From: Candidatus Woesearchaeota archaeon
Lineage (GTDB): Archaea > Nanobdellota > Nanobdellia > Woesearchaeales > UBA10216
Direction of reading: 5' to 3'
Length of the DNA: 64,000 nt
NCBI GenBank assembly: GCA_016192915.1
Contig: JACPTF010000011.1
Coordinates: forward strand, 2,118 to 66,117
Part shown: in pieces, positions 2 to 43,482 of the stretch
How the letters are laid out: the number at the start of each line of letters is the position of its first letter
How positions within the stretch are numbered: position 1 is the stretch's first letter
Translations under genes and position numbers: made by a program
Notes under the pieces: model-generated
Seen by the model: the letters and a program-made list of their open reading frames with translations, nothing else
Databases searched by the model: none
Told to the model about the DNA's origin: nothing

Positions 2-1243
2 TGCGCCAACAACAGCCTTGGCAGCCTCGACCGCTGAAAAAGCAAAAGCGCTTCCCACAACAATAGCGATAACAATAACAGAAGCGCTGAAATTCAGCAG
101 CCGCAAACCGCCAGCCTTAACAAAAATCCTGTCAAGGCCAACAGCCCATATAATGGCAAGGGCAGGAAGGGCAGGAAGGAAAAGACGAGCCTGAGTGCCG
201 CCCGTGTTCATTACGTAAAGGACAAGCGCAACCAGAAAAAGGGCAAGCCAGCCAAAAACAAGGCCCCTGTGCTTTTTAACGGAGAACAGCCCGGCAACAA
301 CCGGGAAAAAGAACACGAAAGTAATGGCAAGCCATGCGGAGATGAAAAATCCTGAGAATGGAATGCTTACAAAGGAAAGGGCCGCCAGGCTGCCCAGTGG
401 CACGCCAAAGCTTTCAAGGTAAAACCTTGCTGCGTGCACTGGGAAAAAAGCAGAAGCGACTGAAAAGTCAGGGACATGCGAAACTATCTTTCCCCCAAGA
501 ATCTTATAAAGGTAAGGCCACAACGGGTTGCCAAGCAGGACATAATTGCGAATGAACCAAGGAAGGCCAATGACACCCATGATTAATCCTGAAACAGCTG
601 ATTTGGAAAGAAAAATTCTTGGCTGCTGCCTGTAATAAACAAGCAGCGCAACAAAAAACAGGGGAAGCATGAAAAACATGTGCTGCTTCGACACCAGCCC
701 AAGCCCCATAAAAACAGCAGAGAGGTAAATCCTCCTGCAGAAAAGCAAATAGACGGAAACAACAGCAAGAAAAAGGGCAAGCGACTCAACAAACGAAATG
801 GCGCTGGCATTCATGTGCAAAGGCAGGAAAGCAACGAACAGGGTGGCAAAAAAACCAATCCTCGAATTGAACAGCTTTCTTCCAAGAAGGAAAATGAAAG
901 GCAACGACAGTGTTCCAAACAGCGGCGAAACGAACTTAACAGCAAACTCGGCAGCAGGAATGCTGAGTAAGCTGAAGATTTTGTAAACGGAGGCAGTGAT
1001 AACGTGGTAAAGCGGCGGGGCAGCGAAAACCTCCCTCTCACTGATGCCAAAAGGCTCCAGAAAAGGCATGCGGCCGTTCTCAGCAATAAACCTTGAGACA
1101 GAAAGGTGCCAGCACGCATCACCGGCAGGATGGCTCAGCGCAGCAAGGGCAAAACGAAGCACAGCCGCAGCCACTATGACGGCAACGGCGAGCTTAAAAT
1201 AATTGTCCTTAAACTCGCATTTAAGCCTGCCAATGAACCCCAT
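2..1243 (-). CDS. GT-C fold membrane glycosyltransferase (ArnT/PMT-like), 3' end beyond window edge
   Basis: Not in the ORF track because it runs off the edge. Hand translation from ATG at 1243 gives MGFIGRLKCEFKDNYFKLAVAVIVAAAVLRFALAALSHPAGDACWHL...PPLYH...PWFIRNYVLLGNPLWP...ARLFLPALP, with many TM segments and no stop to the edge. Confidence 0.85.
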   Translation of the reverse strand, partial: MGFIGRLKCEFKDNYFKLAVAVIVAAAVLRFALAALSHPAGDACWHLSVSRFIAENGRMPFLEPFGISEREVFAAPPLYHVITASVYKIFSLLSIPAAEFAVKFVSPLFGTLSLPFIFLLGRKLFNSRIGFFATLFVAFLPLHMNASAISFVESLALFLAVVSVYLLFCRRIYLSAVFMGLGLVSKQHMFFMLPLFFVALLVYYRQQPRIFLSKSAVSGLIMGVIGLPWFIRNYVLLGNPLWPYLYKILGGKIVSHVPDFSVASAFFPVHAARFYLESFGVPLGSLAALSFVSIPFSGFFISAWLAITFVFFFPVVAGLFSVKKHRGLVFGWLALFLVALVLYVMNTGGTQARLFLPALPALAIIWAVGLDRIFVKAGGLRLLNFSASVIVIAIVVGSAFAFSAVEAAKAVVGA

Positions 1244-1445: not shown

Positions 1446-3656
1446 CTAGGTCAATGTAAACACAAAAGCCGCCTCGCCCTGGTTAGCAATGGTGAAAAGG
1501 CCCGAAGAGGCAACAGCATTAATTAAGGAAACAGTCCTGTTCAGGCCAAAGTTCTTCACTTCAATCCCGCCAATAATAAAGTAGTCGTAGCTGTTGTCGC
1601 GAAGAAAGCTGTGAAGCTCAGATGGCGTGACGTTAAAGAAGCGCTGCCTCATTCTGTATTCAGGCTCGCACCAGCCGCAGGAGTACTTGTCAGAGCCAAT
1701 AACCTGGTCAGGATTCGAGAAAGTGAAAACCTTGGTGTTAGGCGGCAGTGTCCTGAGCCAGCCGTAAACGAGCAGCTCACTAGGCACAGGGCAGTTTGAG
1801 CCCTGCTCAAGCACATAGTTGCCGCCCCAGAACGCCCCGGAAGGCCAGCAAGCAGTATTCAAGTCAAGCTTCGGCTTTGCCGACGTGAAAAAAATTCCCA
1901 CAACAAAGACAGCTATGATTGCAAGCTTTACAGCCGTAACCGCTGAAGCATCAAGCTTAAAGCGGCTCACCAATCCCAGCAGGGCAAAAAGGCCCTCGGA
2001 AGCCAGCATAGCTGCAGGAACTGCCAGGATCATCCAAAAACGGAAGGCAAAAAGGCCAACCGGAAGGTCAAAGGTCTGGTTGTTGACGCCAAGGAAGGCA
2101 AAAAGAAGCCAGCCAAGAAGAATTGCAAGATAGATCACCTGCCTGCGCTCAGCATTGCGCCTCGCAGCTGCAATAACTGCAACAACTGAAAGCAGGAAAG
2201 CCACAGCAAGCAAAACAAGAACCAGCGAAATTGCAAAAACACCGCCATACGAAGGAGGATTAACCCAATTCTGGGGCCTCAAGGGGCCATCACGCCCGTA
2301 AAAGCCCTGCTGGAACTCAAGCGTGCTTGAAGTCAGCAGGATTACCAAAATAATGACAACGACAGCAGCAACAGGAATAACCACCCTGGGCCTTGGCAGG
2401 AGCTTAACAAAGCCAAGAACTGCAGACACCAAACCTGCGGCCATGAGAATGAAGGCAAAAACCCCAAAGCCAACAGGATTATTAACCATGTTCTGGCTCT
2501 GTGCAATAAAGAAGTCCCTAAAAGTGTAAACCCTTGTGGCAGTACCGCTGTCAGGATTCAAAGCGTGAGTGACCAGCCTGATAAGCTTGACTATGACGTT
2601 TGGGGATTGCCTGATGGCGGCCGTGGCAGCCTCAGGACCGTCCTTGAAACTGCCAGCGGCCTTGCTTGCAAAAACCCTCCACTTGAATCCCCACCAGAAA
2701 AGCGAGAGCAAAACACCCAGAATTGCAGCCTTGATGCTGCCTGCATTCTGCTGCACCCACGATTTATTGTCAGCGATTAAGCCCGAAAGCAGCTTAATGC
2801 CAAGGTAGATTGCAACGAAAACAGAAAGCTTTACTGCATGCGTGGGATGGATAAGCAGGACTGAAGCAAAACAGATGGCAGCCACAACCCACCATTTCCT
2901 GCCATGCCTGATCATCTCAAATGCGTACATTGCCGGGAAGAAAGCCACAAGGGCAAAAGCAGGAGCCCAGATAAAATGGCTCAGGTAAGCAGGAACGCTT
3001 GCCAGGACAAAAGTGGCGAACAGGGCCTTTTTACTGCTGCCCATGAACTCCTTGGCAAAAAAATAAAAGAATATTATGCTCAAGGAGATGACCAAGGCGT
3101 TGAAGAACTTCACAACCCAGTAAACTGATGAAGACACCTGGTTAAGCACGCCAAAAAACATGTCATAGCCTGGAGGATAAGGGTCCATGTACTGGCTCTG
3201 GAAGAATTGGGACGCAAAGGCCGTCTTCTCGATTGAGACATACGCTATGCCACGAACATGGGTCCAAGAGTCATCATCCTCAAGGTAAGCATAGCTGAAA
3301 GCCCCTGAAATGTACATGTAAGCAGTAAAGGCGAATACCAGCAGAAGGATGAGGACATTGACATCCGAAAGCCTGAGCCTCAAAGAGGGGGCATTCAGCT
3401 GCCTGTAACCCTTCCTGAAGATAAGACAATATAAAGGCACAGCAACCGACGCAAAAAGGAAAACCCGCCAGTCCAGTGGAATGCGAAACGCATTAAGGGC
3501 CATGCCCAAAACAGTGAATGCTGAAAAGCCAATTCCTAAGCGCATCAGGTTGCGCTCAAGGAAATGCTCACTCTCCCTCGCCAGCCTGGTTGCTGAAAAG
3601 CCAAGCCCCCACGTGTAAACGAAGAAAAGCAGGATTGCGAAAAGCGAAGCAGCCAT
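1446..3656 (-). CDS. Large multi-pass membrane protein, probable GT-C glycosyltransferase
   Basis: More than 12 hydrophobic segments, an acidic first-loop motif EDDDSWTH, YPPGY, and a C-terminal soluble domain. ATG at 3656 is preferred because of its spacing from the TATA-like box at ~3680-3688. Confidence 0.75.
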   Translation of the reverse strand: MAASLFAILLFFVYTWGLGFSATRLARESEHFLERNLMRLGIGFSAFTVLGMALNAFRIPLDWRVFLFASVAVPLYCLIFRKGYRQLNAPSLRLRLSDVNVLILLLVFAFTAYMYISGAFSYAYLEDDDSWTHVRGIAYVSIEKTAFASQFFQSQYMDPYPPGYDMFFGVLNQVSSSVYWVVKFFNALVISLSIIFFYFFAKEFMGSSKKALFATFVLASVPAYLSHFIWAPAFALVAFFPAMYAFEMIRHGRKWWVVAAICFASVLLIHPTHAVKLSVFVAIYLGIKLLSGLIADNKSWVQQNAGSIKAAILGVLLSLFWWGFKWRVFASKAAGSFKDGPEAATAAIRQSPNVIVKLIRLVTHALNPDSGTATRVYTFRDFFIAQSQNMVNNPVGFGVFAFILMAAGLVSAVLGFVKLLPRPRVVIPVAAVVVIILVILLTSSTLEFQQGFYGRDGPLRPQNWVNPPSYGGVFAISLVLVLLAVAFLLSVVAVIAAARRNAERRQVIYLAILLGWLLFAFLGVNNQTFDLPVGLFAFRFWMILAVPAAMLASEGLFALLGLVSRFKLDASAVTAVKLAIIAVFVVGIFFTSAKPKLDLNTACWPSGAFWGGNYVLEQGSNCPVPSELLVYGWLRTLPPNTKVFTFSNPDQVIGSDKYSCGWCEPEYRMRQRFFNVTPSELHSFLRDNSYDYFIIGGIEVKNFGLNRTVSLINAVASSGLFTIANQGEAAFVFTLT

Positions 3657-7791: not shown

Positions 7792-8537
7792 AAACAGCAA
7801 CGCCAGCAAAAACATCACAGAAGCTGAAGCTGACTATAATAATGCCGGTCAGAAATGAGGGCGTTAACCTGAAGATGATACTCAAGATAATCAACTCGCT
7901 GATGGAGGAGCCTTACGAGACACTTGTCGTATATGACAGCCCAGAAGACGACAGCATACCAGTTGCAGCAGAAATGCAAAAGAAAAACCCTGCTGTTAAG
8001 CTGCTGCACAACGCACTAGGAAGAGGGGTTATCAACGCAGTGAAAACAGGGGTTGCTGCTGCGAAAGGAGAGTATGTGCTCATCCTGCCAGCAGATGACA
8101 TGGGAGCAATATTTGGGATAAGCAAGATGCTTGCAGAGGTAGAAAAAGGCTACGACATGGTCAGCGCAACAAGATATGCGAAAGGCGGCAAGGTAGTTGG
8201 AGGCGCGTTAATTAGCAGGCTACTGTCAAGAATAGCAAACAAGCTCTTCAGGGTGTTTGCAGGCTCGGCACTAACAGACTCGACAGTGGGAATAAAAATG
8301 TTCAAACGCAGCGTGTTTAACAGGATAAATTTTGAGTGCAAACCGGTAGGATGGGCATTCGCGTTTGAGATGGCAATAAAATCGCACATGCTTGGGCTGA
8401 AAGTGTCAGAAGTGCCCATTGTCTCAATAAACAGGTTCTACGGAGGAACATCAACATTCAAGCTCAACAAATGGGCATCAGAATACCTAAGATGGTTCAT
8501 GTGGGGGCTGGTGCATGTGAGGTTCAGAAAAAAGTGA
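7788..8537 (+). CDS. GT2 polyprenol-phosphate glycosyltransferase (DPM1-like)
   Basis: IIMPVRNEG, VVYDS, PADD and SATRYAKGG. The ATG at 7788 overlaps the upstream stop (ATGA). Confidence 0.85.
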   Translation: MKTATPAKTSQKLKLTIIMPVRNEGVNLKMILKIINSLMEEPYETLVVYDSPEDDSIPVAAEMQKKNPAVKLLHNALGRGVINAVKTGVAAAKGEYVLILPADDMGAIFGISKMLAEVEKGYDMVSATRYAKGGKVVGGALISRLLSRIANKLFRVFAGSALTDSTVGIKMFKRSVFNRINFECKPVGWAFAFEMAIKSHMLGLKVSEVPIVSINRFYGGTSTFKLNKWASEYLRWFMWGLVHVRFRKK

Positions 8538-9544: not shown

Positions 9545-10793
9545 ATTAGCATTCAACACAGGCTCAAGCGTTGTTGTGGAAAAATGCCAGGTATGCGACA
9601 ACACCCCACTGGAGCCAATACTCTTCCTCGGATATTTGCCGCCAGTAAACACAATGCCCAAAATAGGAGCCAAGCCGAGAGAGCAGCCAAGCTACCCGGC
9701 ACAGATGCTATACTGCCCAAGATGCGGCCTGGCACAGCTAGGGCTGATTGTTGACCCGAAAATACTCTTTCCGCCGGAATACCCTTACACAAGCAGCACA
9801 ACAAAGATTCTACGGGATAACTTTGCGGAGCTTTACTCTGAGTGCAAGACAATCATACCGCTATCAAAGAATGACCTCGTAGTGGACATTGGCTCAAATG
9901 ACGGTAATTTGCTTAGCAACTTCAAGGACAACCACCGAGTCCTGGGAATAACCCCTGAGGAGATTGGAAAATTGGCGATTGAACGCGGAATACCAACAAT
10001 CATCAGCTACTTCAGCCACGAATTGGCAAAGAAAATCGCTGCCGAAAAAGGAAAGGCAAAAATCATAACTGCAACAAATGTCTTTGCCCACATAGAAAAC
10101 ATACACGGCATCCTTGACGGGATACTTGAATTGCTCGCAGATGACGGCGTTTTCATATCAGAATCACACTACCTGCTATCGCTGGTACAAACACTGCAGT
10201 ACGACACAATCTACCATGAGCACCTGAGATATTATTCTTTGCACAGCCTCAAGTATTTGCTTGAAATGCACGGGCTGGAAGTAATACACGCCAAGAAGAT
10301 ACCAACGCACGGCGGCTCAGTAAGGGTATATGCTGCACGAAAGGGAAAATACCCTGTAAAGCAAACCGGTGCGGAACTGCTCGCTGAGGAAAAGCCTGTA
10401 GTGCTTGACAAGAAAAACTTGCTGGAATTCAAGAAGAGGGTAACAGTTTCAAAGCTCGCACTGCACTCGCTGCTGCTTGGCATCAAAAAGAAAGGCAAAA
10501 GGGTTTACGGCATAGGGGCGCCATCAAGGGCGAGCACCCTGGTCAACTACGTTGGAATAGACGACGGCATAATGGACTGCGTTCTGGAAATAAAAGGCTC
10601 GCACAAGGCAGGAAAGTACATGCCCGGAACACTCATACCAGTGCTGGACGAGGCGAAGCTCTATGAAGACCAGCCAGAATACGCTATGCTGCTTTCATGG
10701 CACATAGCAGATGAGCTGATGCCAAAGATACGGCAGAAAGGCTTCAAAGGAAGCTTCATAGTGCCGCTGCCGGAGCCGAGGATTGTAAGATAG
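9534..10793 (+). CDS. NDP-hexose C-methyltransferase (TylCIII/EryBIII-like, Zn-binding N-terminus)
   Basis: CQVC...CPRC zinc motif, DIGSNDG SAM motif, NVFAH, YDTIYHEH, THGGS and GKYMPGTLIPV. Confidence 0.9.
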   Translation: MNARLAFNTGSSVVVEKCQVCDNTPLEPILFLGYLPPVNTMPKIGAKPREQPSYPAQMLYCPRCGLAQLGLIVDPKILFPPEYPYTSSTTKILRDNFAELYSECKTIIPLSKNDLVVDIGSNDGNLLSNFKDNHRVLGITPEEIGKLAIERGIPTIISYFSHELAKKIAAEKGKAKIITATNVFAHIENIHGILDGILELLADDGVFISESHYLLSLVQTLQYDTIYHEHLRYYSLHSLKYLLEMHGLEVIHAKKIPTHGGSVRVYAARKGKYPVKQTGAELLAEEKPVVLDKKNLLEFKKRVTVSKLALHSLLLGIKKKGKRVYGIGAPSRASTLVNYVGIDDGIMDCVLEIKGSHKAGKYMPGTLIPVLDEAKLYEDQPEYAMLLSWHIADELMPKIRQKGFKGSFIVPLPEPRIVR

Positions 10794-11371: not shown

Positions 11372-12412
11372 TCATTCAAACAGCTTTTTATTCTCAGAAA
11401 CAAACTCCACGAGCTTCTTGACGCCTTCTGCGGGGGAGACCTTTGGCTCCCAGCCAAGAGCCTTCTTTGCCGAAGATATGTCCGCAACGAAGACCTTTTG
11501 GTCGCTGGGGCGCCAGTCAGAATAACTTATTTTGCTCCTCTTACCAGTAAACTTTTCCAATAAGTCCAGCAGCTGCAGCAAGGATAACGCATTCTTTTGG
11601 CCGCCGCCAGCGGTAAAAACGCCATGCTTGAGACTGCTTTTCAGGAACCTGTCATAAATGTCAAGAAGGTCTGAAACGTAAAGCACATCCCTGACCTGCT
11701 TGCCGTCACCATAGATAGTAAGGGGCTTTCCCAGAAGAGTAGCGATGGCAAACCACGCAATCCAGCCCTGGTCCTCAACCCCAAACTGCCTGGTTCCATA
11801 AATACAGCTCATCCTGAAAACGCCAGTCTTCAGGCCGTACACATGCGCGTAGTCCTGGACGTAAAGATCGCCCGCCAGCTTGGAAACGCCGTAAGGCGTG
11901 TGCTCACACATGTCAATGGAGAAGTCCGAAGGAACCCCGTTCCTGAAGGAAGGCTCAAACTCATAATGGTCCTGCTTTTCAACAATCCGGATTTTGTTAA
12001 CGTTACTGCCAAAGACCTTGTTAGTTGAGCAATGGATGAAAGATGTGCTTTTGCCAGATTTTCTGGCTGCTTCCAAAACGTTAAAAGTTCCCTGGATGTT
12101 GACCTCAAAATCAGGCCGTGGGTCAGTGATGGAAGTTGTAACGGCTGTCTGGGCGGCAGCGTGAAAGATAACATCAGCATCCTTCGCAGCTGCAGCGATT
12201 TCCTTCTCGTTCCTGACATCCCCTTTGATGAATTTGACATTTTTGAACTGCTCAAGGTATTTCTTGTTGTAGTCAGCGTGCTTGATGGGCTTTTTCAGCA
12301 ATTCTGAACGGGAAAGGTTGTCAAACACGGCAACATCATGACCTTCCTTAGCGTATCTTTCAGCTATGTGGCTGCCGATAAAGCCAGCTCCGCCAGTAAC
12401 AAGAATTTTCAT
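11372..12412 (-). CDS. CDP-paratose 2-epimerase-like SDR
   Basis: [73 protein letters not shown] and WRPSDQK. Confidence 0.85.
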   Translation of the reverse strand: MKILVTGGAGFIGSHIAERYAKEGHDVAVFDNLSRSELLKKPIKHADYNKKYLEQFKNVKFIKGDVRNEKEIAAAAKDADVIFHAAAQTAVTTSITDPRPDFEVNIQGTFNVLEAARKSGKSTSFIHCSTNKVFGSNVNKIRIVEKQDHYEFEPSFRNGVPSDFSIDMCEHTPYGVSKLAGDLYVQDYAHVYGLKTGVFRMSCIYGTRQFGVEDQGWIAWFAIATLLGKPLTIYGDGKQVRDVLYVSDLLDIYDRFLKSSLKHGVFTAGGGQKNALSLLQLLDLLEKFTGKRSKISYSDWRPSDQKVFVADISSAKKALGWEPKVSPAEGVKKLVEFVSENKKLFE

Positions 12413-12465
12413 TTCAGCGTCAGGCAAAGCAGCCAAAAAACGCACTATAAAAAGTTTATTGAACA

Positions 12466-12557
12466 TAGACAACTTTGATTATCTATTCTTACTTGTCAAA
12501 GTTGTCTAGGAGAACTTTGAACAAAAGTTAAATATAAGGGGTTATTCAAAGTTCTCC
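12466..12557. repeat. Two abutting perfect 13-bp inverted-repeat pairs in a divergent intergenic region
   Basis: TAGACAACTTTGA (12466-78)/TCAAAGTTGTCTA (12496-508) and GGAGAACTTTGAA (12509-21)/TTCAAAGTTCTCC (12545-57), sharing the core AACTTTGA. Confidence 0.85.
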
Positions 12558-12595
12558 ATAACATATTTAAATCGGCAGAAAGCTACAAAAACAGA

Positions 12596-13486
12596 ATGAA
12601 CGTCGTAGTCAGCATACCGGCTTACAATGAAGAGGCAACCATAGCTGCCGTAATAAGGAACATAAAGGGAGTTCTGGGAAAGCACCGTAGCTATGTGTAC
12701 AGGGTGTTGGTTGTGGATGACGGCTCAACAGACAGGACTGCGGAAGTGGCCAAAAATGAAGGGGCAGTAGTTTACTCTCACCCAAAGAATTATGGGCTTG
12801 CCGAGGCATTCAGGACAGAAATACAGCAGTTCCTGAAGCTAAAGCCTGAAGCTGACGTGATGGTGCACATTGACGCAGACGGGCAGTACAAGGCAGAGGA
12901 AATACCGCTACTGCTGCAAAAAATAGAGCACGGCAACGACTTCGTTCTCGGCTCAAGGTTCAAAGGGCACATTGAAAGCATGCCCCTAATCAAAAAAATG
13001 GGGAACAAGGCATTCTCAAAGGTTATTTCACAGATAACAAGGACAAAGGTGTCAGACGCGCAGTCAGGGTTCAGGGCGTTCACCCGCGAGGTTGCCGAGG
13101 CAATACCAATAATATCAGGCCACACATACACGCAGGAGCAGGTAATAAGGGTAGTAAGGAACAAGTTTAGGATGGTGGAGGTTCCGGTTTACTTTGCTGA
13201 AAGGAAAGGCAAAAGCCGCCTCATAAGAAACCCATTTGAGTACGCAATAAAGGCGTGGATAAACATACTGCGAATATACAGGGACTACGAACCGATAAGG
13301 TTCTTTGGCATGACCGGCGGGGTAATCTTCGCAGCCGGATTTGCCCTTGGGCTCAGGCTGCTGTACTTTTACTTCACAACAGGCATCGTAGGCCACATCC
13401 CAAGCCTTATACTGAGCATGCTCCTAATGAGCGTAGGAGTGCAGGTGATAACGTTCGGGTTTTTGGCGGACATGATGAAAAAATAG
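12596..13486 (+). CDS. GT2 polyprenol-phosphate glycosyltransferase with two C-terminal TM helices
   Basis: IPAYNEE, VVDDGSTDRT, DADGQY, GSRF and DAQSGFRAF. Confidence 0.9.
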   Translation: MNVVVSIPAYNEEATIAAVIRNIKGVLGKHRSYVYRVLVVDDGSTDRTAEVAKNEGAVVYSHPKNYGLAEAFRTEIQQFLKLKPEADVMVHIDADGQYKAEEIPLLLQKIEHGNDFVLGSRFKGHIESMPLIKKMGNKAFSKVISQITRTKVSDAQSGFRAFTREVAEAIPIISGHTYTQEQVIRVVRNKFRMVEVPVYFAERKGKSRLIRNPFEYAIKAWINILRIYRDYEPIRFFGMTGGVIFAAGFALGLRLLYFYFTTGIVGHIPSLILSMLLMSVGVQVITFGFLADMMKK

Positions 13487-13490
13487 GAAA

Positions 13491-14264
13491 ATGAAAGTTG
13501 TAATATTATGCGGAGGAAAAGGCACCAGGTTCAGGGAATACCCTGAAGAAATTCCAAAGCCCCTTGCCGTAATTGGTGGGAAGCCGATACTGTGGCACCT
13601 AATGAAAACGTATTCCCACTACGGCTACAAGGACTTCATACTCTGCCTGGGCTACAAGGGAGACATGATAAAAAAATACTTCATCGAAGAGGAATGGAGG
13701 GCTTCTGATTTTACCATGAACCTCAAGAACAGGCAAAAGCAAACCCTGGCTGCAGGGGAGGAAGAGGACTGGAACATCACATTTGCCGACACAGGACTGG
13801 AAACAAACACAGGCGGCAGGATAAAAAGGATAGAAAAATACATACCTCAAGGCGAGGACTTCTTTGCAACATACGGGGACGGACTTGCGAACATTGACAT
13901 ACGGCAACTGCTTGAATTCCACAAGAAAAAAGGCGGGATTGCAACAATCACCTGCCTCAGGCCATACTCGCAATTCGGCATAGTTGAAATAGACGACAAC
14001 AGCAGCGCAGTAACATCGTTCAAAGAAAAACCAAGGCTTGACTACTGGATAAACGGAGGATTCTTTGTTTTTAAAAAGGAAATTTTCAATTACCTTGGCG
14101 ACAATGACGTCCTTGAGCAGAAGCCATTTGAAACACTTGCCGCAAAAAAAGAGATAGCAGCATACAAGTTCGAGGGCTTCTGGCAGTGCATGGACACGTT
14201 CAAGGACTACCAATCATTCAACGAGCTGTGGGAGAAAGGCGCGCCGTGGAAGGTGTGGAGATGA
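13491..14264 (+). CDS. rfbF: Glucose-1-phosphate cytidylyltransferase
   Basis: ILCGGKGTR, PKPL, ILWHLMK, CLGYKG, TGGRIKR, TYGDG, INGGFFV and FWQCMDT. Confidence 0.9.
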   Translation: MKVVILCGGKGTRFREYPEEIPKPLAVIGGKPILWHLMKTYSHYGYKDFILCLGYKGDMIKKYFIEEEWRASDFTMNLKNRQKQTLAAGEEEDWNITFADTGLETNTGGRIKRIEKYIPQGEDFFATYGDGLANIDIRQLLEFHKKKGGIATITCLRPYSQFGIVEIDDNSSAVTSFKEKPRLDYWINGGFFVFKKEIFNYLGDNDVLEQKPFETLAAKKEIAAYKFEGFWQCMDTFKDYQSFNELWEKGAPWKVWR

Positions 14265-14794
14265 CCACGCTGGAAGAATCAGAAGTTGCAATACCAGTAA
14301 TCTCGGCAATAGTTGAGCGTACTGCAGGGGCAGCTAAAAAAGAAATCTTACTCCAAACCCGAATCGCTAAATATGATCGACTGTATAATGGCTCAATAGA
14401 AATTCCAGCAGGGCGAATTGGAGCTTTTGAGAACGTATACGAAACCATAAAAAGAGAGGTAAAGGAAGAAACAGGGCTAGATGTAATAGAAATAATACCG
14501 AATGACAAATCGAAGATCTTCACTTCAGGACGTAGTGATGCGGGTTTTGCATTTCAGCCATACTGCTGCCAACAGCTGTTAAAAGGCAATATCCCTTGGA
14601 TAGGGTTTGTGTTCATAGTGAGAGTAGCGGAAGGCAAATTGAAACCTGCAGAAGATGAAACCAAGGATTTAAGATGGGCAACCGTTGAAGAGGTAAGGAA
14701 ACTCGTAGACGACACGCCCGAAAAGATATTTACTTTACAGTTACCAGTCCTAGATTTTTATCTTAAACAGCAAGAAAGTAAAATTGGAAAATAA
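14261..14794 (+). CDS. NUDIX hydrolase
   Basis: Nudix box AGRIGAFENVYETIKREVKEETGL. The ATG overlaps the rfbF stop. Confidence 0.85.
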   Translation: MTTLEESEVAIPVISAIVERTAGAAKKEILLQTRIAKYDRLYNGSIEIPAGRIGAFENVYETIKREVKEETGLDVIEIIPNDKSKIFTSGRSDAGFAFQPYCCQQLLKGNIPWIGFVFIVRVAEGKLKPAEDETKDLRWATVEEVRKLVDDTPEKIFTLQLPVLDFYLKQQESKIGK

Positions 14795-14855: not shown

Positions 14856-15596
14856 TCATGTGGAACTTTGCGGCGCGACACGCACCCCACGAGCAGACCC
14901 GCCGCTGCCGACGATGCCGACGTCGGCATAGATGACGAAGACGTCGTTGAGGCTGCTGACGCCAAGCACCAACGCCCGCTCAGTACCAATTTCAGGAGCC
15001 TTGTCTATTCTCCATAAATAGCTTTTCTTTCCAGTTATCCATTTGTAAACATCGCTCACTCTTTTTACATCCGGACTTCCAAGAAGCGCCTGCATTTCTC
15101 CACTCATTCCATCATCGATACGGCCATTTGGCCCTGCCAGACGAGCTTCCAGCGTTCTTTCCTCAGGCGTCCCGGCATCGTGCGTCACTATGCCAGATGC
15201 GCCAGCCCGGTAAGTTACTCCAGTGGCTGTCATCATCCACCTGTTTCTGAAATCACCAGCAAAAAGACTTCTTAACTTTTTAACACTCGCGAGAGTCACC
15301 CTTAACTTTTCAGCGTCCCCGCGGCCTTCAGCAAGGGCTGCGAGAATTGCTATATTGTTGTCATAAACAGCTGAATGGAGCGCAAACTGCAATGGCGCAC
15401 TGCCAGGCCCCCACCCGGTCTCATTCCTGTAAGCCTGCCATCCTGCCTGGGTTCTGAACCGGCCATTATCCAACAGCTTTTCTGTGACTTGCACAGCACC
15501 ATAGGAACCGCTTGGAAGCATGATACCATGAACAATGTAGAAACTCTGAGACCTTACTATTTCGAAAGGCGTAACGGCTAAAGTCTGTTGTGACAC
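14856..15596 (-). CDS. Hypothetical protein with DGR-type C-terminal variable region (putative C-type-lectin-fold DGR target)
   Basis: The C-terminus ERALVLGVSSLNDVFVIYADVGIVGSGGSARGVRVAPQSST is encoded by 21 consecutive NNY codons (20 of them NNC) at 14901-14963, followed by a GC-rich segment. Confidence 0.7.
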   Translation of the reverse strand: MSQQTLAVTPFEIVRSQSFYIVHGIMLPSGSYGAVQVTEKLLDNGRFRTQAGWQAYRNETGWGPGSAPLQFALHSAVYDNNIAILAALAEGRGDAEKLRVTLASVKKLRSLFAGDFRNRWMMTATGVTYRAGASGIVTHDAGTPEERTLEARLAGPNGRIDDGMSGEMQALLGSPDVKRVSDVYKWITGKKSYLWRIDKAPEIGTERALVLGVSSLNDVFVIYADVGIVGSGGSARGVRVAPQSST

Positions 15597-15660
15597 GTGA
15601 ATAAGGAAATGAAGAATTGCTTATAAATAATACGGTTTTGACAACGTCAAAAACAAAAAC

Positions 15661-15692
15661 CTTTATAAAGTTCGTAAGTACTTAAGTACTTA
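15661..15692 (+). promoter_or_regulatory. TATA box and 18-bp perfect palindrome (probable antitoxin operator)
   Basis: CTTTATAAAG at 15661-70, then TAAGTACTTAAGTACTTA at 15675-92 running into the ATG. Confidence 0.65.
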
Positions 15693-15964
15693 TGGGAGAA
15701 GTAAAGGTAAAGCTGAGCGATGAAGCGGAGGCGGCTTTCAGGAAAGCAGCAATGGAAAAGTTCGGCTACTCAAAGGGCTCGCTTAGTTCGGCTGCCGAAG
15801 AAGCTGTATGGGGCTGGGTGGCGGCACGGTCAAAAGCAGCCGATGTGACAGAGTCCCTAAGCGAGCTGAGAGGCGTATTAAAGCACGTTAAGAAATCGTC
15901 CGTAGAGCTGCAGCATGAAATAGGAGAGGTTAGGAGAGCAAGATACCATGCTCATAGACGCTAA
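15692..15964 (+). CDS. RHH-type antitoxin (VapB-like)
   Basis: VKVKLSDEAEAAFRKAA...KGSLSSAAEEA...SSVELQHE, overlapping the PIN toxin. Confidence 0.75.
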   Translation: MGEVKVKLSDEAEAAFRKAAMEKFGYSKGSLSSAAEEAVWGWVAARSKAADVTESLSELRGVLKHVKKSSVELQHEIGEVRRARYHAHRR

Positions 15965-16352
15965 CATATTTCTGGAATTCCTGCTTGACCAGCAAGAAGC
16001 GCAGAGATGCTTGGATTTTCTGGAAAAAGTCAGAGAAGGAGCAGTACGTGCAGTTGTTTCCACGTTCACGATTGACAGCATCCTGATAGAGCTCGAAAGG
16101 CACCAACACGATGCTGAAATCATGAAAAGATTTCTTCAAAGCCTTCTAGGACATAAGGGGTTGAGAATTTATGTGCCAACAATGGATGATAGGCTCAAGG
16201 CCATCGCCCATCTGGCGCTTGGACTTGACTTTGAAGACGCCCTTACTCTTCAGAGCGCAATAGCCAACAATGAAAAAGAAATAATGAGCTTTGACAAGGA
16301 TTTTGACAAGATAAAAAGCATTAAAAGGACACAGCCGCCACTGCCGAATTAA
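15948..16352 (+). CDS. vapC: PIN-domain toxin
   Basis: LIDANIFLE, LDFEDAL and SFDKDFD. Confidence 0.9.
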   Translation: MLIDANIFLEFLLDQQEAQRCLDFLEKVREGAVRAVVSTFTIDSILIELERHQHDAEIMKRFLQSLLGHKGLRIYVPTMDDRLKAIAHLALGLDFEDALTLQSAIANNEKEIMSFDKDFDKIKSIKRTQPPLPN

Positions 16353-19682: not shown

Positions 19683-21086
19683 ATGAACATTTTGCTCATC
19701 CTGCCTCCCAACATTGGCAGATATGTGGTGGCCACCATTCCCCATGCAGGCATCGCCTACCTGGCAGCGTTTCTGGAGAGGGAAGGCCATTCTGTCGACA
19801 TAGCAGACATGAGGATTGACCCAAGCGACGAGAACCTGTTCGCGCAAATCGAGAGGTTCAAGCCGCAGCTAATTGGCCTGAGCACTGCCAGCATAGGCTA
19901 CAAGATGTCCTATGAGCTTGTTTCCAAGCTGAAGAAAAACTTTCCACAGATTCCAATAGCAATTGGCGGCTCCCACGTCTCCACAGTCCACACAAAGGCC
20001 CTTGAAGAGACCGAGGCAGACTATGGAGTATACGGGGAGGGCGAGAAGACATTCATTGAATTGGCAAGGAATGAACCTGCCGAGAACATCAAAGGCCTGA
20101 TCTGGAGAAAAAAAGGCAGCATAGTCATGAACCCTCCTGCCCCGCTGGCACAAGACCTGGACGACTTCCCCTACCCGGCCTATCAAAAGTTCCAGCTAAA
20201 CAAGTTCCTTGAAAAAAGAATCCCGCTGGTAACATCAAGAGGATGCCCGAACAGGTGCACCTTCTGTTCCATCCAGCTTGTTATGGGCTACCCGTTCAGG
20301 ACCAGGAGCCCAAAGAACGTTGTAGATGAAATGGAGCACTGGCACAAAAAGGGCTATGACACTTTCGAAATCAGCGATGACAACTTCACCTTCAACCTGC
20401 CGAGGGCTGAGAAAATATGCGACCTCATCATTGAAAGGGGTCTCAAGATAAAAATGATATTCGGCAACGGCCTGAGGGCTGACAGGGTTAATGAGCAGCT
20501 CCTTGCCAAGCTGAAGCAGGCAGGCTGCGTGTGGATAGCATACGGCCTCGAAACGTCAGACATCTTAGGCCTGCAGCTGCTTAAGAAAGACCTTTCCGTA
20601 GACAAGCTGAAAAGCGCTGTAGAAATGACAAAAAAACTGGGAATTGAGGTGCAGGTAAACTTCATCATAGGATGCCCGGGGCAAACATTTGAAAAATTCA
20701 AGAGGGACCTTGAGTTTGCCGACGAGCTTGGAGTTGACCAAGTCAGGTTCTACAACCTCATACCATATCCTGGCACTGAGATGTTTGAGTGGGTGCAGCA
20801 AAATGGAAGGTTCCTCTACCCTTCTGAAAAATACCTGAACGACTTCAACTACTGGTCTGAGGAGCCAGTCTTTGAGACTGACGAATTCCCCAGGACAGAA
20901 AGGATCCTCGCGTATAAAATGGGGCAAAGCAAGATAATGGAGCTCTTCCTTAAAAGGCACTTTGGCAAGAAACTTGGCACAGTTGGCCACAGGCTCTGGC
21001 GACAGGAATTTGTACAAAAGCACTTAAGGGGAATAGCTACCAAGGCATGGGTAGGTATGAAGAGACTGAAGATAAAGCAGTACTGA
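19683..21086 (+). CDS. B12-binding-domain radical SAM protein
   Basis: GIAYLAA, GGSHVS, GEGE, SRGCPNRCTFC, DDNF and PYPGT. Confidence 0.9.
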   Translation: MNILLILPPNIGRYVVATIPHAGIAYLAAFLEREGHSVDIADMRIDPSDENLFAQIERFKPQLIGLSTASIGYKMSYELVSKLKKNFPQIPIAIGGSHVSTVHTKALEETEADYGVYGEGEKTFIELARNEPAENIKGLIWRKKGSIVMNPPAPLAQDLDDFPYPAYQKFQLNKFLEKRIPLVTSRGCPNRCTFCSIQLVMGYPFRTRSPKNVVDEMEHWHKKGYDTFEISDDNFTFNLPRAEKICDLIIERGLKIKMIFGNGLRADRVNEQLLAKLKQAGCVWIAYGLETSDILGLQLLKKDLSVDKLKSAVEMTKKLGIEVQVNFIIGCPGQTFEKFKRDLEFADELGVDQVRFYNLIPYPGTEMFEWVQQNGRFLYPSEKYLNDFNYWSEEPVFETDEFPRTERILAYKMGQSKIMELFLKRHFGKKLGTVGHRLWRQEFVQKHLRGIATKAWVGMKRLKIKQY

Positions 21087-22057: not shown

Positions 22058-23296
22058 CTGGGCAACAGCAACAGACGAAAAAACGCCATAGAACAAGGAA
22101 GCTACCATGGGCCACGAATAATTCCCCGCAACGTGCTTTTTTGCTTCTGCAGAAAGCTTTTTCCCCAGTTCAGAACCTGCAAACAGGGATTTAATCGCGG
22201 CTGCCAGCTCTTCATGATTCTTCTGCTCAACAAGCAAGCCAGTCTTGCCGTTGACAACTATGTCCGGAATGCCACCCACCCTGCTTGCAACAACAGGAGT
22301 CCCGGCAGCGATTGCCTCAAGGAGAACAACACCCAATCCCTCAGTATCCCCTTTGCTATCAACAATTGACGGAAGGACAAAAACATCAGCAGCCCTGTAA
22401 AAGGCGGGCAGCTCATTATTAGGAACGCTGCCAGCGAATGCAACCGCCGAAGACAACCCAAGCTGTTGCGACTGCCTTACAAGGAAGGCTTTCTCAGGGC
22501 CTTCTCCAACAACAACAAGCTTGCAGCCAGGGAATCTTTTTACAACATCCTTCATGGCTGCAATCAGGTAAGTGACTCCCTTCTTTTCAGCCAGCCTGCC
22601 AACAAACAGAACCATTTTTCCGCTTTTGCCAGTAATGCCAAACTTTTTCCTAATCGCAGCCGCCGCAAACGATGACGCAGAAGAGAACATCTTCATGTCA
22701 ACACCCATCGGAATGACTTTGATGCCTGGCAGGCCAGAAATTTTGGCAACAGCTGATTTTGTAAAGGCGCTATTAACGGTTATGGCTGAGGCGGAATTGA
22801 TGGAAAATTTTGAAAGCATGCGAAAAACGAAATTATTAAGGGGGAAGACATCACCAGCATGAGCCGTAACAACAACGGGAATCTTTAGTAATTTGCCTAT
22901 TATTGCCGCAACAAAGCCCTGCGGAAGAATCCAGTGGGCATGAATAATGTCCGGGCGCTCCTTCTTTGCGACTTTCCAGAGCGAAAAAAACTCGGCAGCA
23001 ATGAAAAAAGGCAGCTGAACCCTTGCAAGAAAGCTCTTCTTCATGTTAGGAAGGATGCCACCACCATAACACAGGCGCTCAAGGCCGCTTGGAAGGAAAT
23101 ACCTGAACCTGTAAACGCGCATGCCATCAACTGTTTCAAAAAGCCTGCTGCCGGGATGGTGCGGCACCAAAACAGAGACACCAAGGCCCTTTTGTGAAAG
23201 GCGCTTTGAAAGGCCGTAGACAAATGCAGGAGAAGGGTCATTCTTCCAGCGGGGAAAGGCGCTGCTGCCAAAAACAAGCAGTTTAATTGGCATCAT
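22019..23296 (-). CDS. GT4 glycosyltransferase
   Basis: HAHWILPQG, PMGVD, FVGRLAEKKG and TEGLGVVLLEA. Confidence 0.9.
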   Translation of the reverse strand: MMPIKLLVFGSSAFPRWKNDPSPAFVYGLSKRLSQKGLGVSVLVPHHPGSRLFETVDGMRVYRFRYFLPSGLERLCYGGGILPNMKKSFLARVQLPFFIAAEFFSLWKVAKKERPDIIHAHWILPQGFVAAIIGKLLKIPVVVTAHAGDVFPLNNFVFRMLSKFSINSASAITVNSAFTKSAVAKISGLPGIKVIPMGVDMKMFSSASSFAAAAIRKKFGITGKSGKMVLFVGRLAEKKGVTYLIAAMKDVVKRFPGCKLVVVGEGPEKAFLVRQSQQLGLSSAVAFAGSVPNNELPAFYRAADVFVLPSIVDSKGDTEGLGVVLLEAIAAGTPVVASRVGGIPDIVVNGKTGLLVEQKNHEELAAAIKSLFAGSELGKKLSAEAKKHVAGNYSWPMVASLFYGVFSSVAVAQLPVLSKQRSKDY

Positions 23297-24228
23297 AAGC
23301 TCCTCCTCCAGTAGTCAAGCATTTCAGACAGTGTTGTCTCAAACTTGATTGATGGCTTCCAGCCGGTTGCCTTCCTAAACTTGGCATTATCACCAACAAG
23401 CTCAGGAATATCAGTTTTCCTTGTTTTTGAGACATCCTTCACAATCCTGGCCGATTTCGCCTTTGCAGAGAAAGAAATGAGCGTATCAAGGACATACCTC
23501 ATTGAGTAGCTGCTGCCGCTGCAGACGTTATAGATTTCCCCGGGCTTCCCTTTCTGAAGAGCCAAAAGATAGGCACCAACAGCATCACGCACATCAGTAA
23601 AGTCACGCCTGATATCAAGGTTACCAACGACAATCTCCTTCCTGATGCCATGCTCAGCCTCAACAACCTGCCTCGCAAAGTCAGAGCACACAAACGCTGA
23701 CGGCTGGCCAGGGCCTGTCTGGTTAAAGCTGCGCGAGATGACAAGCCGGACTCCTTTAGAGCGGAAATAGCTGAGGGCCACTTTTTCCTGCTCGACCCTT
23801 GACTCGCCATACGGAGTTATGGGCCGCAGCGGATGGTCTTCTGTTATTGGAAGCTTCTCCGGAATGCCGTAAACCTCAGCAGACGACACAATAAGGATTT
23901 TGGGATTAAGCCCCGCAGCGGCAACCGCACCCAAAAGGTTTTTTGCACCAATAACGTGAACTGTCCTTGTGAGTTCAGGCTCTTTCCAGCTTCGCTCAAC
24001 AGAGCTCTGCCCGGCAAGATGAAAAACAAAATCAGGCCTTACCCTTTTGACAACAGAAAAAACAGAATCATAATCCATTACGTCGCACTTGTCAACAACG
24101 CAGCCATCAACCGCGCTGCCTTTTCTGTCGCAGCCAAAAACCTCAAAGCCGCTTGCCATGAGGTGCCTCACAAGATAAGGGCCAACAAAGCCGCTAACAC
24201 CCGTAATAAGAGCCTTCTGCGCATTCAT
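23293..24228 (-). CDS. GDP-4-keto-6-deoxy-D-mannose reductase/GMD-like SDR
   Basis: ITGVSGFVG, FHLAGQSSV, SSAEVYG, RSFNQTGPGQ and GNLDIRRDFTDVRD. It lies downstream of gmd. The YxxxK motif reads YGESR. Confidence 0.8.
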   Translation of the reverse strand: MNAQKALITGVSGFVGPYLVRHLMASGFEVFGCDRKGSAVDGCVVDKCDVMDYDSVFSVVKRVRPDFVFHLAGQSSVERSWKEPELTRTVHVIGAKNLLGAVAAAGLNPKILIVSSAEVYGIPEKLPITEDHPLRPITPYGESRVEQEKVALSYFRSKGVRLVISRSFNQTGPGQPSAFVCSDFARQVVEAEHGIRKEIVVGNLDIRRDFTDVRDAVGAYLLALQKGKPGEIYNVCSGSSYSMRYVLDTLISFSAKAKSARIVKDVSKTRKTDIPELVGDNAKFRKATGWKPSIKFETTLSEMLDYWRRSL

Positions 24229-24298
24229 AGCATAAAATAACATTAACGATTATTTAAAATGTTAACTCAAAAAAAAGGAATCACAAAGAAATCAGGCA

Positions 24299-25143
<845 letters not shown>

Positions 25144-26954: not shown

Positions 26955-28400
26955 TCACGCCCTGCCCACAAGAACCTTCTCAAAAGCCAGCTTTAGCAGG
27001 CCATTGCCTCCCATGAAGTTGCTCTTAAACTCGTTCCAGCTTCTAACCCTGCTAAGCTTTCTAAGAATATAGCTTGGCCTCAGGTAGAACTCCAAGACAG
27101 CCCTGCCAGTCCAGTACCTCAGCTGCCTGGAAGTCAGCTTAGTTGTCCTTAGCAGTGGGTCAGTTCCGTGAATGATATGGCCTTCAAAATTGTCAGGCTG
27201 CTCGAAAAGCTTGTTTGCAATGACCTCATCGTAGACAGGAGTTCCAGGGTACGGGTTCAATACGTTAAAGAATGTCAGGTCAGCATCAACCTTTTTGGCG
27301 AACTTTATCGTAGCCTTAAGCTCCTCTTCGCCCTCCCATGGGAAGCCCATGATAAAAGAGGCCTTGACCATAATTTTGTGCTTCTGGGCCATCCTCACAG
27401 CTTTTAAAACCATGTCGCACGTGATAGGCTTGTTTACCTTCTTGAAGCCCTCATCGTAGCCTGTTTCTACGCCAAAAACCATGCTTCTGCAGCCAGCACT
27501 GGCCATGGCACTAAGCAGCTCATCATCCATGTGATTGACTCGCGCCAGGCACTCCCAGGCCAAGTCCATCTTGGCCTCCTTAATCTTATCACATATTTCA
27601 ATAACCCTCTTATGATTAACGGCGAACTCGTCGTCCTGGAAATAAATGTGCCTAACCCCATATTTATCGTAAAGGAGCTTAATCTCCTCAAATACTTTTT
27701 CGGGCGACCTCTGGCGCCAATACTTGGCCTGTATTGAGCTCTGGCAGAAGTTGCACTTGAACGGGCAGCCACGGGAGGTCACCATTGTTGTAAACTTTCT
27801 GCCGAGATTCAGCCAGCCGTACGAGTGATACTTCTCCATTGGGAAAAGGTGATAAGCGGGCATGGGCAAAGAGTCCAAATTTTTCACAACAGGCCTCTCG
27901 GCGGTCCTGACCTTATTCTTATTTGAATCCAGATACATCAGCCCCTTTATCTCACTTAGCGGGGTATTGCTCTTTTTGTAAATGTAGTCCAGCAGCTCAA
28001 CTATAGTTTCCTCTGCTTCATTGATCACAACGTAATCAACAACACCTTCTTCCTGAAAGGCAGAGCCCGGGTTTACGGTAACGTGAGGGCCCCCGATAAT
28101 ATTAATGACAGACGGGTTGTTTTCCTTGGCTTTCTTTAAAATAGACATTGCTATTTTGAAATTGGCAGTAACTGCACCCAGAAGAACTAATTTTGGGTTA
28201 TGCCCCTCTATCTCCCTGGCTACCTCAGCTTCGGTAAGCTCCAAGCCAAAGCAATCGAGAATCTTCACATCGTAGCCAAGCCTCTCTATTACGGCGGCTA
28301 TTACACCGAGGCCCAAATTCGGGCATTTTGGCCCTATGGCACCGAGCCTTCCATAACTGAAAGGCGGTGCCACGCACAATATCTCTGTCACAGTGCACAC
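26955..28400 (-). CDS. B12-binding-domain radical SAM protein
   Basis: PNLGLG, GGPHVT, SRGCPFKCNFC, FQDDEF, FGVETG and PYPGT. Confidence 0.9.
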   Translation of the reverse strand: MCTVTEILCVAPPFSYGRLGAIGPKCPNLGLGVIAAVIERLGYDVKILDCFGLELTEAEVAREIEGHNPKLVLLGAVTANFKIAMSILKKAKENNPSVINIIGGPHVTVNPGSAFQEEGVVDYVVINEAEETIVELLDYIYKKSNTPLSEIKGLMYLDSNKNKVRTAERPVVKNLDSLPMPAYHLFPMEKYHSYGWLNLGRKFTTMVTSRGCPFKCNFCQSSIQAKYWRQRSPEKVFEEIKLLYDKYGVRHIYFQDDEFAVNHKRVIEICDKIKEAKMDLAWECLARVNHMDDELLSAMASAGCRSMVFGVETGYDEGFKKVNKPITCDMVLKAVRMAQKHKIMVKASFIMGFPWEGEEELKATIKFAKKVDADLTFFNVLNPYPGTPVYDEVIANKLFEQPDNFEGHIIHGTDPLLRTTKLTSRQLRYWTGRAVLEFYLRPSYILRKLSRVRSWNEFKSNFMGGNGLLKLAFEKVLVGRA

Positions 28401-38037: not shown

Positions 38038-38412
38038 TCACTTAACAAACTCAACATTAGCCTTGTTGCGGAACTTCTCATCACCAGTAAGAAACTTTAT
38101 TCCAAGCTCAACTGCAACAGCATAACCAATGCAGTCAGCATAGCTTAGCGCCTCATCTTTGAATTGCAGCTTAAACTGCATGGCAGCGGCTATCGAAGAA
38201 AGAGAAACAGTGACCAAGAATCCAGAATAAAAATCAAAGTAGCGATTAGCCTCCTCAAAAGAGTAAAACCTCAGCAAGTGGTAGTACAGCTCAGCAAGGT
38301 GAAACTTAGTAGTTGCCAGGACAGAATTCAGATAAGGAGCACAGCTTCGGTTTCCCCCTATAATTTCAATAAGTGCGTATGTATCTGCCAAAAACTGGCC
38401 TGGCTCAGTCAT
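38038..38412 (-). CDS. vapC: PIN-domain toxin
   Basis: ADTYALIE, LSYADCIGY and LTGDEKF. Confidence 0.88.
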   Translation of the reverse strand: MTEPGQFLADTYALIEIIGGNRSCAPYLNSVLATTKFHLAELYYHLLRFYSFEEANRYFDFYSGFLVTVSLSSIAAAMQFKLQFKDEALSYADCIGYAVAVELGIKFLTGDEKFRNKANVEFVK

Positions 38413-38626
38413 GGTACTCCCTATCAATCTCTTCCATTGCCTTTTGGGTAGGCATTTTAAGCTTTAACGAGCCAAATACCTTACGCAGCCTGCCAGACTG
38501 GTCAGCCACAACAAACACCCTAACCCTTCTGCCAGGAGAAAGGCGCTCACTGTCAACAATCTCCTTCGGGATAGTCACCCCCAACGAATTCCCCCACTTC
38601 TTCGGAACTGTCTCAAAGCCCTGCAT
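38405..38626 (-). CDS. AbrB/MazE-family antitoxin
   Basis: KKWGNSLGVTIPKEIV. Confidence 0.85.
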   Translation of the reverse strand: MQGFETVPKKWGNSLGVTIPKEIVDSERLSPGRRVRVFVVADQSGRLRKVFGSLKLKMPTQKAMEEIDREYHD

Positions 38627-43440: not shown

Positions 43441-43482
43441 CGAACTAAGTCCGGACTTAATCCGAACCTAGTCCGGACCTAC
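43429..43482 (+). repeat. 11-bp tandem repeat array B (gene end/intergenic)
   Basis: CAGGTTCGTT then AACGAACTAAG TCCGGACTTAA TCCGAACCTAG TCCGGACCTAC. Confidence 0.85.

Follow-up and report, generated by a model that had tools for sequence, protein, structure and literature searches.

What accounts for a stretch of codons almost all ending in C, at the extreme C-terminus of an archaeal gene that otherwise uses such codons sparingly, when no element able to write it lies nearby? The gene in question encodes a 246-aa protein and lies at 14856..15596 on the minus strand of 64,000 nucleotides of a Candidatus Woesearchaeota genome (assembly GCA_016192915.1, contig JACPTF010000011.1); this whole stretch is called the window below. 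We think it probable that the C-terminal 95 nt of the gene are the variable repeat (VR) of a diversity-generating retroelement (DGR), and that the gene is a non-adjacent target, most likely written recently in trans by a cassette of template repeat (TR) and reverse transcriptase (RT) located elsewhere in the same Woesearchaeal genome, where ‘recently’ refers to the scale of synonymous drift. The RT would copy a TR RNA rich in AAC codons and put random bases opposite the template adenines, and the cDNA would then replace the VR up to a GC-rich mark for the initiation of mutagenic homing (IMH). The expected outcome would be codons of the form NNC (N being any base) at about 18 positions of a β-hairpin and loop on a C-type-lectin-like domain, with a hypervariable binding site formed around the invariant residues F220, I222 and A224.

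The codon signature can be read directly. Positions 14963-14901 of the minus strand, beginning GGC GTC AGC AGC CTC AAC GAC, hold 20 NNC codons and one TAT, in frame near the C-terminus of the open reading frame (ORF) and flanked by ERALVLG and (GS)ARGVR; the GC-rich sequence GGGGTGCGTGTCGCGCCGC (14888..14870) comes after the run. Only 39 of the remaining 225 codons of the gene (17.3 %) end in C, and sliding windows of 21 codons outside the C-terminus contain between 1 and 7 of them each. Across the six frames of the 64 kb, a single one of 127,876 21-codon positions reaches 20, the next independent best being 16, and the binomial probability of at least 20 C-ending codons in 21 is 1e-14, so that about 1.3e-9 such windows would be expected in the stretch. 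The run is real and far beyond chance. An initial annotation of this DNA had drawn attention to it; the 20 C-ending codons and the one TAT were read back exactly and proved unique in the window, and their position at the extreme C-terminus between ERALVL and ARGVR, with GC-rich DNA to follow, is as it had described. The features of the locus are as follows.

14856..15596, minus strand: target gene for a stand-alone variable protein, with a GTG start; a 246-aa ORF with its stop codon at 14858..14856, which models as one globular domain.
14887..14981, minus strand: putative VR, from GAG CGG GCG TTG GTG CTT GGC (ERALVLG) to GCT CGT GG, as aligned to the TRs of two related loci (L003 and L001, described below).
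14895..14960, minus strand: 22 hypervariable codons, V213-S234, recognized from the codon run and from the composition of the block in homologues.
14870..14888, minus strand: GC-rich 3′ element GGGGTGCGTGTCGCGCCGC, a putative IMH-like recipient mark at the 3′ edge of variation, judging by its likeness to VR ends.
15621..15627, minus strand: TTTATAA, a TATA-box-like motif read from the sequence, ending 25 nt upstream of the GTG start.

The limits of the VR follow, by analogy, those of the 93-nt TR cores in the two related loci. The 21-codon run as first annotated (14901..14963) takes in the scaffold GGC of G212, and three further codons within the hypervariable block belong to the invariant scaffold, namely TTC (F220), ATC (I222) and GCC (A224). 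The stored gene call (P0001, 221 aa) begins at Met26 and leaves out 15522..15596; because homologue N-termini align from the GTG and the model strands at residues 12-26 are confident, we consider this call too short at its N-terminus and place the true start at the GTG at 15596. The TTTATAA motif would suit a promoter of the gene's own and a leaderless mRNA.

The protein belongs to a large archaeal family for which neither Pfam nor NCBIfam holds a model. The 246-aa protein itself matched no Pfam family at E<=10 and no NCBIfam family, and 116 family members gave no Pfam family for the shared domain, FGE-sulfatase and Lcl_C (DUF1566) included, at E<=0.01. Relatives numbered 21 in a word-indexed search, and 688 representative clusters (50 % identity) came up at E<=1e-3 in an exhaustive profile search, 129 of them at E<=1e-30. 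When close relatives are aligned, ERALVLG and ARGVR.APQNSTGSKG are conserved and the approximately 20 residues between them are scrambled. Across 20 homologues, the variable block contains not one K, E, Q or M, the residues that NNC cannot encode, in 393 positions, against 864 K, E, Q, M or W among 4459 residues (19.4 %) outside the block in the same proteins. All five W of the block fall in one column that alternates between R, W and G, as an AGG template codon would give. The NNC/NNY form of the variable codons (Y being a pyrimidine) is present in the window copy, and NNC runs are found in the DNA of relatives as well. The wider family keeps the same architecture in two flavours, ...ARGV... 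and ...LGVR, and many members carry a non-hydrophobic N-terminal extension; one 767-aa member (P0022) has three family-like stretches.

We found no description of this family in the literature searched or in the supplement text of Wu et al., a search that did not extend to Paul et al. 2017, the main survey of the candidate phyla radiation (CPR) and DPANN archaea. The family may already be listed in that survey, because the related locus L003 comes from the same groundwater data set.

Such a block could in principle owe nothing to a retroelement, being a compositional accident or a low-complexity tail rich in Gly, Val, Asp and Ser with a local codon bias. In favour of this, G, V, D and S abound in the block and the adjoining DNA is GC-rich. 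A run expected roughly 1e-9 times in the window is nevertheless hard to obtain in this way, and the block is the sole scrambled part of an alignable family and avoids just those residues that NNC cannot encode. The relatives bear on the same point, as their TRs and RTs act on the same position. A first profile scan of genome contigs, with alignment A1, had given 16 pattern matches and no relatives; a second scan with the tighter alignment A3 gave four loci, L001-L004, and in all four an NNC run stands at the same place in the target genes.

The most informative of these, L003, lies on contig JAGVYM010000011.1 of Candidatus Woesearchaeota archaeon RIFCSPLOWO2_01_FULL_45_21. Its TR core (7893..7801, minus strand) comprises 93 nt, 31 of them A, and encodes ERVLVLG-C-NN-V-NNN-F-N-I-N-A-N-D-N-I-NNN-R-PAR, which is nearly the template that the initial annotation had derived from the VR side (RALVLG-Nn-F-N-I-N-A-Nn-I-Nn-xARG). 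Directly after the TR comes a 448-aa ORF with an RVT_1 domain (E=6e-26) and the motifs LGNWTSQ and YVDD; the form (I/L/V)GxxxSQ is a mark of DGR RTs. The TR and RT lie 2.6-5.2 kb from two VRs, in target genes at 9755..10615 and 12294..13136 that are each preceded by a 462- or 554-aa gene. All 15 mismatches between the first VR and the TR fall at TR adenines, as do 17 of 21 for the second. The second cassette, L001, comes from an Aenigmatarchaeota genome and has its TR at 14384..14476, followed by an RT 62 % identical to that of L003; it contains four family paralogues, and in the VRs of two of these TR adenines account for 19 of 23 and 13 of 16 mismatches. Relatives of the window protein are demonstrable DGR targets with VRs at the same C-terminal position. 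The proposal that the window block is a DGR variable region gains from these loci, in which a TR lies beside an RVT_1-type RT and mismatches fall almost only at template adenines. The codon-run odds, the block composition and the TR/VR pairs of L001 and L003 together effectively refute a compositional accident, and we regard an origin outside a DGR as negligible in probability.

Both complete cassettes do without Avd; they span 7676..15603 in L001 and 6459..13136 in L003, and in each the TR core runs up to or into the beginning of the RT ORF. The neighbourhood of the L003 TR contains no Avd, its sole ORF being a low-complexity antisense translation of the TR, and because this is the only ORF near that TR we describe L001 and L003 as bare TR-RT cassettes. 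The same ORF (‘orf116’) was considered as a reverse-strand Avd and rejected, its TR-derived product being hydrophobic and of low complexity and having no Pfam match. NCBIfam holds no DGR-specific RT model, and the RTs of L001 and L003 scored best, below the cut-off, against the group II intron RT. The other two loci are shorter. L004 (863..7275 of a Nanoarchaeota contig) has one partner gene followed by six tandem target-family paralogues, with no RT or TR in the 8.2 kb contig. L002 (Woesearchaeota, 3,658 nt) has no RT in its 3.7 kb contig and carries an exact repeat of at least 100 nt at 251..350 and 3529..3628, inside copies of the target gene; this end repeat could reflect a circular element, a collapse of tandem paralogues or an assembly wrap-around.

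How closely does the window copy correspond to these templates? The L003 targets are of the same family as the window protein (tblastn E of about 1e-22 to 1e-24, 31-32 % of residues identical) and share with it a VR at the same C-terminal position, the scaffold ER.LVLG ... F.I.A ... ARG and a GC-rich recipient end. In alignment, the window VR has the scaffold codons of both the L003 and the L001 TRs, and its only T-ending codon, in ATC TAT GCC, corresponds to ATC AAT GCC in the L001 TR. The scaffold codons are identical to those of the first L003 target at 36 of 39 nt, whereas the remainder of the gene agrees at 271 of 597 nt; at identical residues, third positions agree in 38 of 50 cases in the scaffold and in 111 of 289 elsewhere, these being sums over five comparisons that are not independent. 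The 3′ end of the window VR shares the form GG(G/A)GTG...GCGC...CAAA with proven VRs of L003 (GGAGTGGTCGC.CGTCGCGCGC) and L001 (GGGGTGGTCGTCGGCGCGCC), and is unlike the donor ends of the L003 and L001 TRs, G(G)AATGGCC.... None of the 21 third positions has decayed, which, by an estimate of our own that assumes neutrality and AAY template codons, puts the divergence since the VR was last written below about 0.13 substitutions per site (95 % bound). Because the third positions are untouched, the ORF is intact and the 3′ end is of the recipient type, we consider recent writing in trans more likely than a relic stranded long ago.

The predicted structure gives partial support to the form that the binding site would take. 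A first AlphaFold2 model from 21 sequences (mean predicted local distance difference test score, pLDDT, 82) gave weak fold matches only, whereas a second from 116 sequences reached pLDDT 95 and a predicted template-modelling (TM) score, pTM, of 0.92. The top Protein Data Bank (PDB) match of this second model is 5ioo_A, which is AvpA (prob 0.96, TMq 0.41, TMt 0.47, 240 columns, E=0.016), and at rank 3 stands the human C-type lectin MCL (TMt 0.48). Ranked by probability, the best matches in the viral library BFVD are to tail fibres of the crAss-like kind (0.96 and 0.85), with a TvpA-like protein (0.47) after them, and an atlas gave a weak lead to Lcl_C with a score of 0.80, below the guide value of 0.9. 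The variable residues 213-234 are placed by the model on a strand-loop-strand-loop segment ahead of the last strand, an arrangement reminiscent of AvpA. The C-type-lectin fold that the initial annotation had anticipated is borne out in so far as AvpA is the top PDB match of a confident model, and falls short in that an E value of 0.016 is not significant; we therefore regard a C-type-lectin-like fold as moderately supported by the modelling.

AvpA is a DGR variable protein of Nanoarchaeota with a C-type-lectin fold (PDB 5IOO), whose last strand is reported to be encoded by the IMH and whose variable site contains an invariant Phe (Handa et al. 2016, PMC5006420). By that description it resembles the window protein: both are small archaeal proteins of a single domain, in which a VR of only about 20-27 residues lies close to the C-terminus and contains an invariant aromatic residue, F185 in AvpA and F220 here. 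The ...F.LYAD...ARGVR and ...LGV... look of the VRs is likewise that of the ‘CLec’ (AvpA-type) class as presented by Wu et al. (PMC5758913). In contrast, none of the three AvpA motifs GxxVVVYAH, HPxxxPFxG and RFxGV occurs in the window protein, and their counts among the 116 family members are 0, 0 and 1; AvpA also lacks sequence similarity with the three family profiles at E<=10. On the modelled structure, the two proteins would at most share a fold subclass and would not be of the same family.

If the window copy is a DGR target, where is the element that writes it? A Pfam scan of the 66 ORFs of the window gave no RVT or Avd match (E<=1e-5), and the L003 DGR RT used as a tblastn query found nothing there at E<1. 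An ungapped, adenine-tolerant scan with the VR found no template-like copy, the best non-self match having at least 12 non-A mismatches in 63 nt. Scanning for density of AAY codons was not discriminating (a maximum of 8 per 25 codons in the window, against 9 and 12 for the true TRs) and gave place to a generic scan for A-biased repeat pairs, which returned no candidates in the window and two pairs in each of the positive controls, L001 and L003. The absence of RT, Avd and TR from the 64 kb noted in the initial annotation is upheld by all of these searches, which place any TR-RT cassette beyond 14.9 kb on one side of the target gene and beyond 48.4 kb on the other. An RT missing from the window is compatible with the status of a DGR target, non-adjacent targets being known.

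Several points weigh against the proposal of a remote DGR target. A DGR-type RT would be expected in the same replicon, usually beside its TR, and was not encountered within the window; with neither TR nor RT found for the window copy, adenine-specific mismatches are known from its relatives alone. Before ARG the window protein shows S, at a position where P prevails among its relatives, and its VR is one codon longer than the L003 TR, so that its cognate TR, if it exists, must differ from those of L003 and L001. The window copy also lacks the paralogue arrays, the 550-640-aa partner and the AAA+ gene of L001-L004. As regards the fold, three fold searches gave no match at E<=1e-3, AvpA itself remaining at E=0.016 with TM values below 0.5, and the three family profiles (A1, A2 and A4) reached no solved structure, 5ioo included, at E<=10, their matches being at chance level only.

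Some of these points could also be read as signs of a stranded former target, in which the VR was once written by a DGR but the cognate TR-RT was lost, or the copy moved away, leaving the block frozen. Such a history would fit the lack of RT, TR or Avd in 64 kb and the solitary state of the copy, without paralogue arrays, VWA partner or AAA_5 gene, in what looks like a secondary seat between a NUDIX gene and a PIN toxin-antitoxin pair within a sugar-modification island; where L003 has a TR, an RT and the preceding 462- and 554-aa genes, the window has none of these. Precedents exist, in that 3 of 22 groundwater AvpA homologues are reported to lie outside DGRs (Handa et al., PMC5006420), and L004, with its six tandem paralogues, and L002 are also without an RT, on contigs of only 8.2 and 3.7 kb. 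However, all 21 codons retain the template-type third base in a gene where 17 % of codons elsewhere end in C, so stranding would have to be recent; the ORF and the recipient-type, IMH-like end are intact, and the scaffold codons still match foreign TRs at synonymous sites. Because the copy is solitary and out of its usual context, we keep the relic explanation alive as a minority reading with a real, if limited, share of the probability.

Another possible writer is a DGR outside the chromosome, carried by a virus, a small episome or an element of a co-resident partner and serving the VR in trans. Since the RTs of L001 and L003 are so alike across Aenigmatarchaeota and Woesearchaeota, and TR flanks resemble the window VR in nucleotides, the cassette may move between lineages, and the end repeat of L002 makes a small circular element with partner and target genes conceivable. 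Against this, tblastn searches of 50,697 phage and 72,556 plasmid records brought up nothing related to the target, the L001 and L003 cassettes have ordinary genes of the cell as neighbours (TruD for L003; RtcB and an M17 peptidase for L001), and remote targets are not expected for phage-borne DGRs, to go by the account of Wu et al. (PMC5758913). We consider a non-chromosomal source very improbable. Our preferred explanation remains a chromosomal TR-RT cassette acting at a distance; we infer that such a cassette wrote the window copy and that it probably persists in the genome.

Remote targets are documented elsewhere. Wu et al. 2018 (PMC5758913) report 73 non-adjacent targets in 45 of 372 DGRs, 10 DGRs having 29 targets more than 100 kb away, describe an experiment in which avd-TR-brt acts in trans from a plasmid, and count the bare TR-RT architecture in 75 of the 372. 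The remote targets of that study and the tvpA paralogues of Treponema denticola resemble the window copy in being VR-bearing genes far from an RT; they differ in that the TR is known there and the A-to-N test was made, whereas the window copy is known from the VR side alone. According to Wu et al. (PMC5758913), remote targets appear only around Lineage 4 and not in the CPR/DPANN set. Surveys of metagenomes are described as missing remote targets by design (PMC8144416), and Paul et al. (PMC4372165) discussed fragmentary nanoarchaeal DGRs as acting in trans or as stranded. DGRs have been described as prominent in DPANN archaea (PMC7495880), and this is the setting suggested for the window by the initial annotation and by the host's own genes: the GyrA sequences nearest to that of the window (78-85 % identity) bear the labels Woesearchaeota or Nanoarchaeota, from which we conclude that the host is a DPANN archaeon.

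DPANN DGRs, C-type-lectin variable proteins and non-adjacent targets are all established, and our results leave that overall picture unchanged. What they add is a DGR target that was recognizable from its codon pattern alone, with its template rightly predicted from that pattern, and the delimitation of a large uncharacterized archaeal target family whose confident model is most like AvpA. The large DPANN family to which the window protein belongs normally occurs in arrays beside a bare TR-RT without Avd, whereas this member stands alone. If the cognate TR-RT exists in the full genome, the locus would be a test case for trans-acting, Avd-independent retrohoming in an archaeon.

What might such a protein do? 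In the related loci, 2 to 6 paralogous targets form an array in which a 550-640-aa partner is interspersed. For L001 a VWA domain (E=1.2e-6) is recognized in this partner, and the first target comes after a gene for an AAA_5 (MoxR/dynein-type) ATPase (E=7.7e-7). Elsewhere in the family, the shared domain is fused to N-terminal Ser/Thr kinase (Pkinase) domains in P0041 and P0136 (E=2e-31 and 4e-34) and to a prokaryotic RING finger in P0165 (E=7.6e-8). Residues 11-41 of the window protein are confidently modelled strands of the fold and not a signal peptide; because of this, and of the Ser/Thr kinase or RING domains found fused to certain members, a cytoplasmic location is plausible. The AAA+/vWA context and the kinase fusions point to intracellular sensing and not surface adhesion, and we infer that the window copy may be a hypervariable ligand-binding protein, probably cytoplasmic.

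The DGR-diversified CLec sensors of MoxR-vWA (VMAP-type) conflict systems, reportedly treated by Kaur et al. 2020 as well as by Dore et al., are among the nearest known counterparts. They resemble the archaeal loci in the AAA_5 gene and VWA partner of L001, in the Pkinase and RING fusions of the family and in the lack of an evident signal peptide. The archaeal loci yielded neither a VMAP nor an effector domain, and unlike such systems the window copy has no AAA+, vWA, VMAP or effector gene near it among the 66 ORFs scanned. Dore et al. 2024 (PMC10907252) describe MoxR-adjacent DGR targets with domain-less N-terminal extensions, predicted to be mostly cytoplasmic, and interpret the MoxR-vWA-associated DGR targets as antigen sensors. 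The Pfam-less family, so far found in DPANN archaea, might then correspond, in archaea, to the intracellular antigen sensors that DGRs diversify in the MoxR-vWA and kinase conflict systems of bacteria, with the window copy a live, stand-alone sensor rewritten in trans by an Avd-less TR-RT; we put this forward tentatively, as a proposal that we ourselves hold to be doubtful. If true, a single small retroelement would serve receptors scattered over a reduced genome, at distances of at least tens of kilobases.

By the scan of its 66 ORFs, the window is a sugar and glycosylation island with GT2 and GT4 transferases, many NAD-dependent epimerases/dehydratases and PMT_2 proteins, together with the housekeeping genes gyrA, scpB, argG and argH. 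The target gene is convergent with the NUDIX gene (14186..14791), and the PIN toxin-antitoxin pair lies directly upstream of it (15692..16349, plus strand), consisting of a 90-aa ORF that overlaps a PIN-domain gene (E=7.5e-13) in the manner of a typical VapBC-like pair; a second PIN gene is found at 38041..38427 on the minus strand.

Near the end of the ORF at 42799..43437 (family D1) are two unexplained patches of 11-nt-periodic direct repeats (43115..43178 and 43418..43481), about 300 nt apart, with units like CCGAACCTAAT and CCGGACTAAAT. Within the glycosylation island, a GDP-mannose 4,6-dehydratase is split into two overlapping ORFs (24302..25143, minus strand), of which 24700..25143 covers profile positions 1-147 and 24302..24742 positions 191-332; this could be a frameshift, a pseudogene or a sequencing error, and an intact paralogue adjoins it at 23296..24243. 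Three B12-binding radical-SAM enzymes (19683..21083, 26958..28400 and 31895..33364) are spread through the island and suggest unusual methylations of sugars or lipids.

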